Of a DNA stretch of 58,655 nt, positions 54,119-55,999 are shown piece after piece. Where the stretch lies: IMG/VR virus record IMGVR_UViG_3300044994_000219, positions 1 to 58,655 of that record. The stretch is one strand, 5' to 3'. This stretch comes from a virus. Every line of letters starts with the position of its first letter. The first letter of the stretch is position 1. The position numbers and the translations under genes were made by a program. Under the pieces are notes generated by a model. The model did not search any database. It was not told where the DNA came from and saw nothing but the letters and a program-made list of their open reading frames with translations.

Positions 54119-54547
54119 ATACTTGACTATAGTTGCGCGTTTGACGATCTGGAGCGGCAGAAGCAGGTTCTCGAACTGTATTGCGCACGGCAAGGCTGGA
54201 CGTTCGAGGTCATCGCCGACCTGGGTTCCGGCATGAACTACCACAAGAAGGGCTTGAAGAAGCTGCTGGAGGCCATCATCGAAGGCCAGGTGGGTCGGCT
54301 GGTCATCACGCACAAGAACAGGCTGCTGCGCTTCGGCGCGGAGTTGGTATTCGCCATCTGCGAGGCCAAGAACGTCGAGGTGGTCATCCTTAATCAAGGC
54401 GAGGACACGACCTTTGAGGAGGATTTAGCGAAGGATGTACTGGAAATCATCACCGTGTTCTCGGCGCGGTTGTATGGCTCGCGCAGCCGCAAGAACCAGA
54501 AGCTACTGGACAGTGTGAAGAAAGCCGTGGAGGAAATGCAGGCATGA
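54119..54547 (+). pseudogene. tnpA: IS607-type serine-recombinase transposase lacking the MerR-HTH and catalytic-serine region
   Basis: The frame is open from 54119: ...FDDLERQKQVLELYCARQGWTFEVIADLGSGMNYHKKGLKKLLEAI...ARLYGSRS. The usual upstream YARVSS catalytic segment and HTH are absent. Confidence 0.7.
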
Positions 54548-55740
54548 TCGTTGCTCACAAGATCGCGCTCGATCCGAACAACGTGCAGGCCACCTACTTT
54601 GCCAAGGCCGCAGGCACGGCGCGCTTTGCCTACAATTGGGCGCTGGCCGAGTGGCAACGGCAGTACGAAGACTGGAAACAGGACAACAGCTTGCCCAAGC
54701 CATCGCAAGCCGCACTACGCCGTCAGTTGAACGCCATCAAGCGCGAGCAATTCCCGTGGATGCTGGAGGTCACCAAGAACGCGCCACAAATGGCGATCAT
54801 CCAGTTGGGCGAAGCGTTCAAGAATTTCTTTGCAGGCCGCGCCAAGTACCCTAAGTTCCGCAAGAAGGGCGTGTACGACCGTTTCACGCTCACCAATGAT
54901 CAGTTCGACATCGACGGCTGCCGCATTCGCATCCCCAACCTCGGCTGGGTGCGCATGCGCGAGTCGTTGCGCTTCGCTGGCAAGATCATGTCGGCCACCA
55001 TCTCCCGTGTGGCCGACCGTTGGTTTGTCAGCATCGCCGTGGACACCGAAGACCCACCCAAACGCAAAGCCGAAAACCAAGGCATTGTGGGCGTGGATTT
55101 GGGTGTTTCGGCGTTGGCAACGCTCTCGACGGGGGAACCGCCGATCCCCGGCCCCAAGCCGCACAAGGCATTGCTGGACCGTTTGCGCAGGCTCTCGCGG
55201 AGCCTGTCGCGCAAGCAGAAAGGCTCCCGCAACCGCCGGAAGGCCAAGGCGAAGCTGGCACGTCTGCACGCCAGGATCGCCAACATCCGGCAGGACGCCC
55301 TGCACAAGCTCACGACGGACCTCACGCGCCGATTCCACACCATCGGCATCGAGGATCTGAACGTGCGCGGCATGGTGAGGAACCGCCATCTGGCCCGCTC
55401 CATAGCCGATATGGGCTTCTTCGAGTTCCGTCGGCAACTGGAATACAAGGCCGCGATGCGCGGCGGGCAGGTGGTGATCGCCGACCGATGGTTTCCGAGT
55501 AGCAAGACCTGCTCGGCCTGCGGCTCGGTACAGCAAGACATGCCGCTATCCGTGCGGCAGTGGATTTGCCCGGGCTGTGGCGCATGCCACGACCGGGATT
55601 TGAATGCGGCAAGGAACCTTGCCACATACGCGGTGAGTTCCACCGTGTCAGCCTGTGGAGAGGAAGGCTCTGGCCCGGCGCGCAAGCGCCAGGCGAAACC
55701 GGCCTCGGTGAAGCAGGAAGTCAGCTTTGTTCCTGTTTAG
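54544..55740 (+). CDS. tnpB: TnpB (RuvC-like RNA-guided nuclease family), apparently intact
   Basis: 398 aa. GVDLGVS (RuvC-I Asp), IGIEDLNVRGM (RuvC-II Glu), CSACGSV...CPGCGACHDRDLNAARNL (zinc finger plus RuvC-III Asp). Confidence 0.92.
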   Translation: MIVAHKIALDPNNVQATYFAKAAGTARFAYNWALAEWQRQYEDWKQDNSLPKPSQAALRRQLNAIKREQFPWMLEVTKNAPQMAIIQLGEAFKNFFAGRAKYPKFRKKGVYDRFTLTNDQFDIDGCRIRIPNLGWVRMRESLRFAGKIMSATISRVADRWFVSIAVDTEDPPKRKAENQGIVGVDLGVSALATLSTGEPPIPGPKPHKALLDRLRRLSRSLSRKQKGSRNRRKAKAKLARLHARIANIRQDALHKLTTDLTRRFHTIGIEDLNVRGMVRNRHLARSIADMGFFEFRRQLEYKAAMRGGQVVIADRWFPSSKTCSACGSVQQDMPLSVRQWICPGCGACHDRDLNAARNLATYAVSSTVSACGEEGSGPARKRQAKPASVKQEVSFVPV

Positions 55741-55999
55741 GCAGGAATGAGTAAGTCTGACGGAACGGTGTTTTACCCCCCAGCATCTTTATTCGCCACA
55801 GCTCCCAAAAGGCCGGGTGCATGCGGCGGGCGCCAGACTCCCAGTCCTGCCATGCACGAAGAGTGCAGTAGATCAGCGCCGCAGCCTCAGTCTGGGTGAG
55901 ACCCGCCGAGGCGCGTGCTTGTCTGATCTCATCAGGTGTTGGGTTGCGCGCCGCGTTGGTCGCGGCGCGGCTTCTGTTCGGGTGGTTATGGTTAGGCAT
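55721..55999 (-). CDS. XRE-type HTH protein whose C-terminal about 20 codons derive from the IS right end
   Basis: Internal Met of ORF 55721..56035 (MPNHNHPNRS...DEIRQARASAGLTQTEAAALIYCTLRAWQDWESGARRMHPAFWELWRIK). The tail MLGGKTPFRQTYSFLPKQEQS overlaps the tnpB 3' end. Confidence 0.75.
   Translation of the reverse strand: MPNHNHPNRSRAATNAARNPTPDEIRQARASAGLTQTEAAALIYCTLRAWQDWESGARRMHPAFWELWRIKMLGGKTPFRQTYSFLPKQEQS

Follow-up and report, generated by a model that had tools for sequence, protein, structure and literature searches.

Results

An IS607-family element between two convergent phage genes

The stretch of DNA analysed here, hereafter called the window, is the 58,655-nt virus record IMGVR_UViG_3300044994_000219 of IMG/VR, and this work concerns an IS607-family insertion sequence (IS) that carries a full-length tnpB gene beside a truncated tnpA. 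The gene order at the locus is an SNF2-type helicase gene (+), a resolvase-like frame (+), tnpB (+) and an XRE/HTH_31 gene (−), and the element lies co-oriented with the phage replication genes, where the convergent SNF2 and XRE genes meet.

The element was delimited against 97 fetched related loci searched with BLASTN, with the intact copy of Tepidiphilus succinatimandens (NZ_SBIK01000010, hereafter L004) as the reference. In this search, homology starts uniformly at position 54143 and stops at 55768-55771, and at least 70 loci span this interval. Positions 54097-54143 (GGGGGTTCCAACTGTTCGTTAAATACTTGACTATAGTTGCGCGTTTG) equal the left end (LE) of L004 at 46 of 47 nt and are also alignable with more than 40 other left ends, so that the LE is present. 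Its retained part occupies 54102..54142 (+), next to a run of Gs at 54097..54101 (+), in which a G-rich flank resembling a target site or target-adjacent motif (TAM) adjoins the GG crossover dinucleotide, and the Gs of target and element are indistinguishable. At the right end (RE), conservation in an alignment of 88 related loci ends after (G/A)AACGG; the element of the window terminates in ...GGAACGG, with the GG at 55767..55768 (+) and the element boundary at 55768/55769. By these alignments, the element extends from 54097/54102 to 55768 with both ends retained.

Elements of the IS607 family have ends that terminate in or abut GG, and they show neither terminal inverted repeats nor target-site duplications (PMC13565253). 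The window copy carries GG at 54100-54101 and 55767-55768, its flanks are unrelated beyond the G-run, and both inverted repeats and a target-site duplication are absent. The insertion site is G-rich as well (...ACGAAGGGGG), and the family consensus of the 5′ flank directly before YTTGAAC, derived from 38 related left ends, is V-R-G-G-G, where the window has GGGGG. A preliminary description of this DNA had called the element IS607-like, which is borne out by these ends and by the transposase model match given below. The alignment to complete IS607 members that it proposed, carried out here with the intact relatives, did define the ends but overturned its coordinates: the element does not start right after the SNF2 stop codon (54119) with its left end lost, as the "decapitated" remnant described there, but possesses an LE at 54097-54142 and a lesion that is internal, and the right end lies at 55768 instead of 55790.

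An internal deletion removed the N-terminal part of TnpA

The deletion junction was located at 54142..54143 (+), where the sequence reads CGCGTTTG/ACGATC (the slash marks the junction), and alignment with L004 reveals a 243-bp internal deletion comprising the inner 14 nt of the LE and TnpA codons 1-76. These 76 residues hold the MerR-type helix-turn-helix (HTH) and the catalytic serine S71 (L004 numbering, YARVSS motif). The tnpA remnant at 54143..54547 (+) corresponds to TnpA residues 77-210, with its first in-frame ATG at 54233, in a frame that is open over 54119..54547. It is matched by Pfam Resolvase and, at 145.9 bits (cut-off 110), by positions 69-187 of the 187 positions of NF033518 (transpos_IS607), of which L004 covers 2-187. 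Because the remnant covers positions 69-187 only, the HTH and the catalytic serine are absent, in agreement with the preliminary description, and no complete tnpA appeared when the ends were redefined, as the LE was found but residues 1-76 are still deleted. The window copy lacks the complete TnpA that marks an autonomous IS607 element; as judged from its gene content, it is a member of the IS607 family by descent that is non-autonomous and cannot transpose by itself, and the loss of residues 1-76 supports the earlier statement to the same effect.

Compared with the intact L004, the tnpA remnant shows 0 synonymous differences and 1 non-synonymous difference, and the nucleotide identity to L004 and L002 is 99-100% over 54196-54795. 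Because the remnant is near-identical to intact copies, we infer that the deletion is recent, in terms of the time that visible decay would take. A 25-mer across the deletion junction found no match in IMG/VR, giving no sign of a spread of the deleted variant. The SNF2 gene and the tnpA remnant share a reading frame and are separated by a single element-derived TAA (54116-54119), so that read-through of this stop would give an SNF2-TnpA′ fusion; the shared frame is probably a coincidence, with a chance of 1 in 3.

The tnpB gene is intact

The tnpB gene at 54544..55740 (+) is intact and encodes a predicted RNA-guided nuclease of 398 aa. Its start overlaps the tnpA stop as ATGA, and the ATG is preceded, at a distance of 9 nt, by a Shine-Dalgarno (SD)-like GGAGGA. 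The product contains all three Pfam TnpB domains, scores 350 bits with NF040570 (guided_TnpB; cut-off 100) and aligns with ISDra2 TnpB over residues 6-364 (E = 5e-68). The RuvC residues D185, E270 and D352 align with D191, E278 and D361 of ISDra2, and both CxxC pairs of the zinc finger are kept (C323, C326, C342 and C345); compared with 119 close homologues, the sole departures from residues conserved in ≥90% are A43D and H111Y. The Pfam matches and the ISDra2 alignment thus confirm that tnpB is full length with its RuvC acidic residues and zinc finger, as first described, and the inactivating changes that the preliminary description had allowed for were not found in the catalytic triad or the zinc finger. 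At the sequence level, the protein has every feature by which OMEGA nucleases are recognized.

The protein belongs to a very large family, with more than 7,900 proteins at E < 1e-50, and the exact TnpB protein has no record in the assembly index. Against distant relatives, the ratio of non-synonymous to synonymous substitution rates (dN/dS) of tnpB is 0.16-0.34, and across the family the gene is under purifying selection. Against the closest alleles, dN/dS is 0.5-0.9; relaxed selection was considered as the reason and rejected, as most of the differences are concentrated in one omega-RNA hairpin at 55669-55694, which contains 14 of the 22 coding differences from L130 and 15 of the 24 from L128. 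Outside this hairpin, tnpB is >99% identical to alleles from three other samples. The hairpin also encodes the C-terminal tail of TnpB, and its pairing is maintained relative to L128 and L130, which suggests a swapped or fast-evolving stem.

The conserved nuclease residues bear on one alternative, namely that TnpB has been exapted as a nuclease-dead, TldR-like RNA-guided regulator of a phage or host gene. Phage-encoded TnpB derivatives acting as RNA-guided transcription factors are known. However, such regulators are marked by lost RuvC residues or a C-terminal truncation, whereas here the RuvC triad and the zinc finger are intact and the protein is full length; moreover, the guide described below is plain flanking sequence that has no other match in the window. 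This reading is extremely improbable, and it was rejected.

A covarying omega-RNA ends at the element boundary and is followed by a flank-derived guide

The predicted scaffold of the omega-RNA, or right-end element RNA (reRNA), spans approximately 55630..55768 (+), overlapping the 3′ end of tnpB and running to the RE, and a possible closing helix extends it back to 55593. A consensus was built from an alignment of 54 sequences covering the last 210 nt of the element. The consensus structure has 42 pairs, 24 of them with changes on both sides; pairing holds in 97.5% of its cells, compared with 29-42% for slid partners, and 0 of 500 shuffles reach the observed values. The window sequence retains 41 of the 42 consensus pairs. 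RAGATH-18 has been described as the RNA partner of IS607 TnpB in a 2026 review (PMC13565253), and the Rfam model RAGATH-18 (RF03064) matches at 55652-55719 over its full length (1-71) with 27.6 bits and E = 0.0043, below the gathering score of 44.9; the match is a resemblance and not a curated match. The covariance-model check proposed in the preliminary description thus ended in a scaffold supported by covariation but with a sub-threshold RAGATH-18 score.

Directly 3′ of the RE lies the predicted guide TGTTTTACCCCCCAGCATCT (55769..55788, +), which starts with TGTTTTACCCCCCAGC... and is antisense to the XRE codons ...KMLGGKT; a guide length of 16-20 nt was taken from the literature. The reRNA of ISXfa1 likewise runs past the transposon boundary, and its TAM is GGG (PMC10711439), while most IS607 TAMs are AGGAG or GAGGG (PMC13565253). 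The GGGGG of the left flank fits these published G-rich motifs and is consistent with a TAM of the IS607 type. The locus has a structured omega-RNA that overlaps the tnpB 3′ end, ends with the RE and takes its guide from the flank. A search of the window that allowed up to 3 mismatches found no further target of the guide, and the 19-nt guide had no match in IMG/VR. Two guide matches in Joint Genome Institute (JGI) metagenomes were rejected as chance, lying in unrelated contigs of 39% GC and being preceded by TTTAAA without a G-rich TAM. The comparison of the guide with host and competing phages, also suggested earlier, thus matched only its own flank in the window, IMG/VR and JGI metagenomes.

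Both flanking phage genes end inside the element

The SNF2-type helicase gene at 52676..54118 (+; Pfam SNF2-rel_dom) is completed by the LE, which contributes the six final codons, (G)VPTVR, and the TAA stop, beginning at about 54098. In the related phages L098 and L099, the helicase-to-SNF2 module has 75-79% nucleotide identity to the window and the SNF2 protein is 79% identical; their homology is lost at 54098, four residues before the end of their SNF2 (...AFQKEMLR and a stop). On the other side, the XRE/HTH_31 gene at 55721..56035 (−; 104 aa) takes its last 15 codons and stop (55721-55768) from the RE, ...WRIKMLGGKT being phage-encoded and PFRQTYSFLPKQEQS with the following stop being element-encoded. 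XRE homologues in other viral contigs terminate 2-8 residues after WELWxIK. Because the homologues end near these points, neither phage gene lost more than a few codons. The reading frames of tnpB and XRE overlap by 20 nt; the 20-nt overlap with the convergent XRE gene in the preliminary description is correct for these two frames, but the element supplies 15 XRE codons and not about 20 after WRIK, since MLGGKT belongs to the phage.

By these comparisons, the element sits exactly at a mosaic boundary, where homology to L098 and L099 stops (54098, 55769). The comparison with related phages that had been proposed located the left divergence at 54098 through these two phages, but it yielded no empty site. 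The genes right of the element, encoding the XRE protein, a zinc-ribbon protein, a 482-aa protein and an AAA_5 ATPase, have no counterparts in L098 and L099. The XRE protein (55724-56035, −) shows weak matches, below the cut-offs, to the VC1465 family (Xer recombination activation factor) and to MqsA-type antitoxin models, and its homologues are scattered as single genes across many unrelated viral contigs. XRE homologues in IMG/VR share none of the neighbour genes of the window, and no empty site could be recovered from them. Among 50,697 GenBank phages, megablast with 52600-57000 gave no match, and the protein-level matches of SNF2 were all below 60% identity and uninformative.

The left and deletion junctions recur in an independent assembly

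An independent Logan contig (L127, SRR30649430, 36.9 kb) is 100% identical to the window over 48676-54223; it spans the LE junction and the deletion junction and then breaks inside the IS at 54223. The alternative that the assembly is an artefact, in which a repeat IS was threaded between two phage contig ends so that the insertion or the internal sequence is unreal, draws on this break, on the window being a metagenome-style circular assembly with a 127-nt overlap, and on the mosaic identity along the element to any single relative. However, a separate assembly contains the LE and deletion junctions with 100% identity, and both junctions of the element coincide exactly with the canonical GG ends, next to a left flank that is G-rich as is typical of the family. 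In addition, the >99% identity of tnpB outside one hairpin to alleles from three other samples points to a natural haplotype, and both flanking genes are closed by element-derived stops at lengths near those of their homologues. An artefact is therefore very unlikely.

Loss of tnpA is common in the family

The 97 fetched loci include about 40 with a full tnpA, about 12 in which it is 5′-truncated or frameshifted, and about 30 with none beside an intact tnpB. By this count, an intact tnpB beside a decayed or missing tnpA is about as frequent among the fetched loci as one beside a full tnpA; a copy with a dead tnpA and an apparently live tnpB is a common state and the usual fate of these elements, and the loss occurs mostly in bacterial chromosomes. 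From the last of these groups, L128 and L129 (ENA ERZ28614697 and ERZ15185093) carry at 2176-3453 a 98%-identical tnpB with its omega-RNA but no left end, only about the last 52 nt of tnpA remaining; their guide is TACGGAGGTTGACTACC..., and the tnpB adjoins Peptidase_M15 and Gp80-like genes in a phage-like contig. Comparison of L128 with the window by tblastx gave noise only, and the two phages are unrelated.

Other features of the phage genome

The window is a phage, with PHROG matches to large terminase, portal, major head protein, internal virion protein and DNA polymerase. Positions 1-127 are identical to 58529-58655, and this terminal overlap of 127 nt indicates a circularly closed (k-mer overlap) assembly and a complete genome of ~58.5 kb. 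The family-A DNA polymerase gene at 39291..42317 (−) is interrupted by a 286-aa intein-like insert (window 40071-40928) that begins with CFAEDTPVLT and terminates in LLVHN/C, its middle being Ser/Thr-rich and without a Pfam match; PHROG matches assign residues 1-445 and 814-1007 to the polymerase and 483-770 to an 'endonuclease'. The insert resembles a selfish element, which would be the second in this phage. A single open reading frame of 3666 aa fills 26911-37911 (+), and its similarity to giant phage proteins of unknown function (phrog_14770, E = 1e-216) is confined to the C-terminal ~900 residues. At 42689-42788 (−), the Rfam tRNA model scores 46 bits over 100 nt, whereas ARAGORN detected no tRNA in the whole window. 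The stretch could hold a tRNA that carries an insertion or intron, or else a structure resembling a tRNA.

Discussion

Based on these findings, we propose that the locus probably holds a copy of a very abundant IS607-family element that is non-autonomous yet intact in other respects, underwent a recent internal deletion and shows no sign of domestication. The preserved tnpB would then be intact for want of time to decay and not because the phage needs it. As the tnpA remnant is as undecayed as tnpB, selection in the phage cannot be deduced from the preserved state of tnpB. Of the two options that the preliminary description had left side by side, a very recent truncation is thus favoured, given that the remnant differs so little from an intact copy; retention for a phage function gained no positive evidence, as tnpA decay is common in the family and the guide matches only its own flank.

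The element closely resembles the IS607 elements of proteobacteria, such as L004 and the biochemically studied ISXfa1, with which it shares the gene order, the serine-recombinase TnpA, TnpB and the omega-RNA. The likeness extends to an RE ending in GAACGG, GG at both junctions, a G-rich 5′ flank, a 3′ omega-RNA and a guide outside the RE. It differs from them in that TnpA residues 1-76 and the inner LE are lost, that it sits in a phage, and that both flanking genes end inside it. With the TnpB of ISDra2 (IS200/IS605; PDB 8BF8, 8EXA and 8H1J), the window TnpB has in common the catalytic D/E/D residues and both CxxC pairs; however, ISDra2 has a Y1 HUH transposase partner, a TTGAT TAM and single-stranded DNA movement, whereas the window element is of the serine-recombinase IS607 lineage with a G-rich TAM. 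The solo or tnpA-decayed loci L051, L037, L030, L043 and L128/L129 likewise combine an intact tnpB and omega-RNA with a tnpA that is missing, 5′-truncated or frameshifted, but they have lost the LE too, while the window element keeps the LE terminus. Because this terminus is retained, mobilisation of the window element in trans is conceivable, unlike that of the solo loci.

A possible course of events at the locus can be outlined as follows. First, no sigma-70-like promoter or terminator was found between SNF2 and tnpB; because of this, tnpB and the omega-RNA may be transcribed by read-through from the SNF2/phage replication operon, the tnpB gene having an SD-like sequence of its own. A promoter scan of the intact left end of L004 found nothing either. 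Upon expression, the TnpB-omegaRNA complex would cut DNA in which a G-rich TAM (GGG/RGGG) precedes the TGTTTTACCCCCCAGC... of the right flank, which is the element-free allele of the locus. Such cutting would favour the copying of the element back in, and hence its own retention or spread, an established role of TnpB (PMC13565253), while the donor junction would be spared, as the RE ends in ...AACGG and presents a C where the TAM has a G. Finally, a full-length host copy might mobilise the element in trans, which is conceivable because both ends survive.

The same parts could serve a more far-reaching process, in which TnpB-omegaRNA, kept by the phage or keeping itself, cuts the uninterrupted XRE-SNF2 junction of co-infecting phages, so that the element and neighbouring markers are copied into related phages or those phages are destroyed, in the manner of the T-even free-standing homing endonucleases. 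All parts required for this RNA-guided homing or exclusion are intact, both the tnpB residues and the omega-RNA; the guide lies in a phage gene, the GGGGG left flank fits the family TAM, and the element occupies the very boundary where the homology of the relatives ends. The intein in the same phage indicates that selfish homing elements do persist there, a 98%-identical tnpB with almost no tnpA occurs in another phage-like contig (L128/L129), and TnpB has a precedent for such behaviour in plasmids and IStrons (PMC13565253). However, no target has been found, the guide being without a match in IMG/VR and its two JGI matches lying in unrelated contigs of 39% GC without a G-rich TAM, and the XRE C-terminal tail under the guide is not conserved among XRE homologues. 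Moreover, the tnpA remnant is as undecayed as tnpB, which leaves no differential preservation, and many members of the family, mostly in bacterial chromosomes, have lost tnpA. Homing or exclusion between phages is thus regarded as unlikely, although less remote than an assembly artefact.

Several observations weigh against our proposal of a recently deleted, undomesticated copy. No element-free relative with the same right flank was found among GenBank phages, IMG/VR and the fetched relatives, and because of this the empty site and the TAM are reconstructed and not observed. When the flanks are joined in silico, the XRE gene regains a natural end (...GGKTPPS and a stop), but SNF2 acquires an extension of 38-48 residues or longer in every frame, and the extension that this simple-excision reconstruction predicts is absent from relatives. 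Because excision extends SNF2 in this way and the downstream regions of the relatives are unrelated, the flanks may not have been contiguous before insertion, and a second event, such as an IS-mediated or adjacent deletion or a recombination between two copies, may have taken place. Furthermore, the window's own assembly is the only one to show the RE junction. Finally, the near-identical tnpB with almost no tnpA in L128/L129 could point to repeated retention in phages and not to chance.

Earlier reports have described TnpB genes in phages, and the window is, on the present reading of its sequence, a further example of a known process, in which IS607/TnpB elements enter phages, lose the transposase and keep the nuclease and its guide RNA. 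The analysis corrects the annotation of the locus as to the extent of the element (54097/54102-55768), the internal nature of its lesion and the ends of both neighbour genes inside it, and it predicts for this element a guide and a TAM that are directly testable. The homing or gene-drive logic of TnpB after the loss of TnpA has already been discussed (PMC13565253), and the locus provides a concrete substrate for the question of whether super-Mendelian inheritance between phages can be driven by TnpB, an idea that exists for plasmids and IStrons and of which we found no test in phages in the literature. The T4 Seg/Mob homing endonucleases (discussed for OMEGA in PMC13565253) offer a functional analogy rather than a membership: there too, a selfish nuclease gene lies between conserved phage genes and could in principle cut the element-free allele of a co-infecting relative, whereas target recognition in the window would be RNA-guided. 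Should the homing reading prove true, OMEGA nucleases would be connected with phage mosaicism, the nuclease driving the mosaic boundary at this site, and the element might represent an RNA-guided counterpart of the T-even free-standing homing endonucleases.

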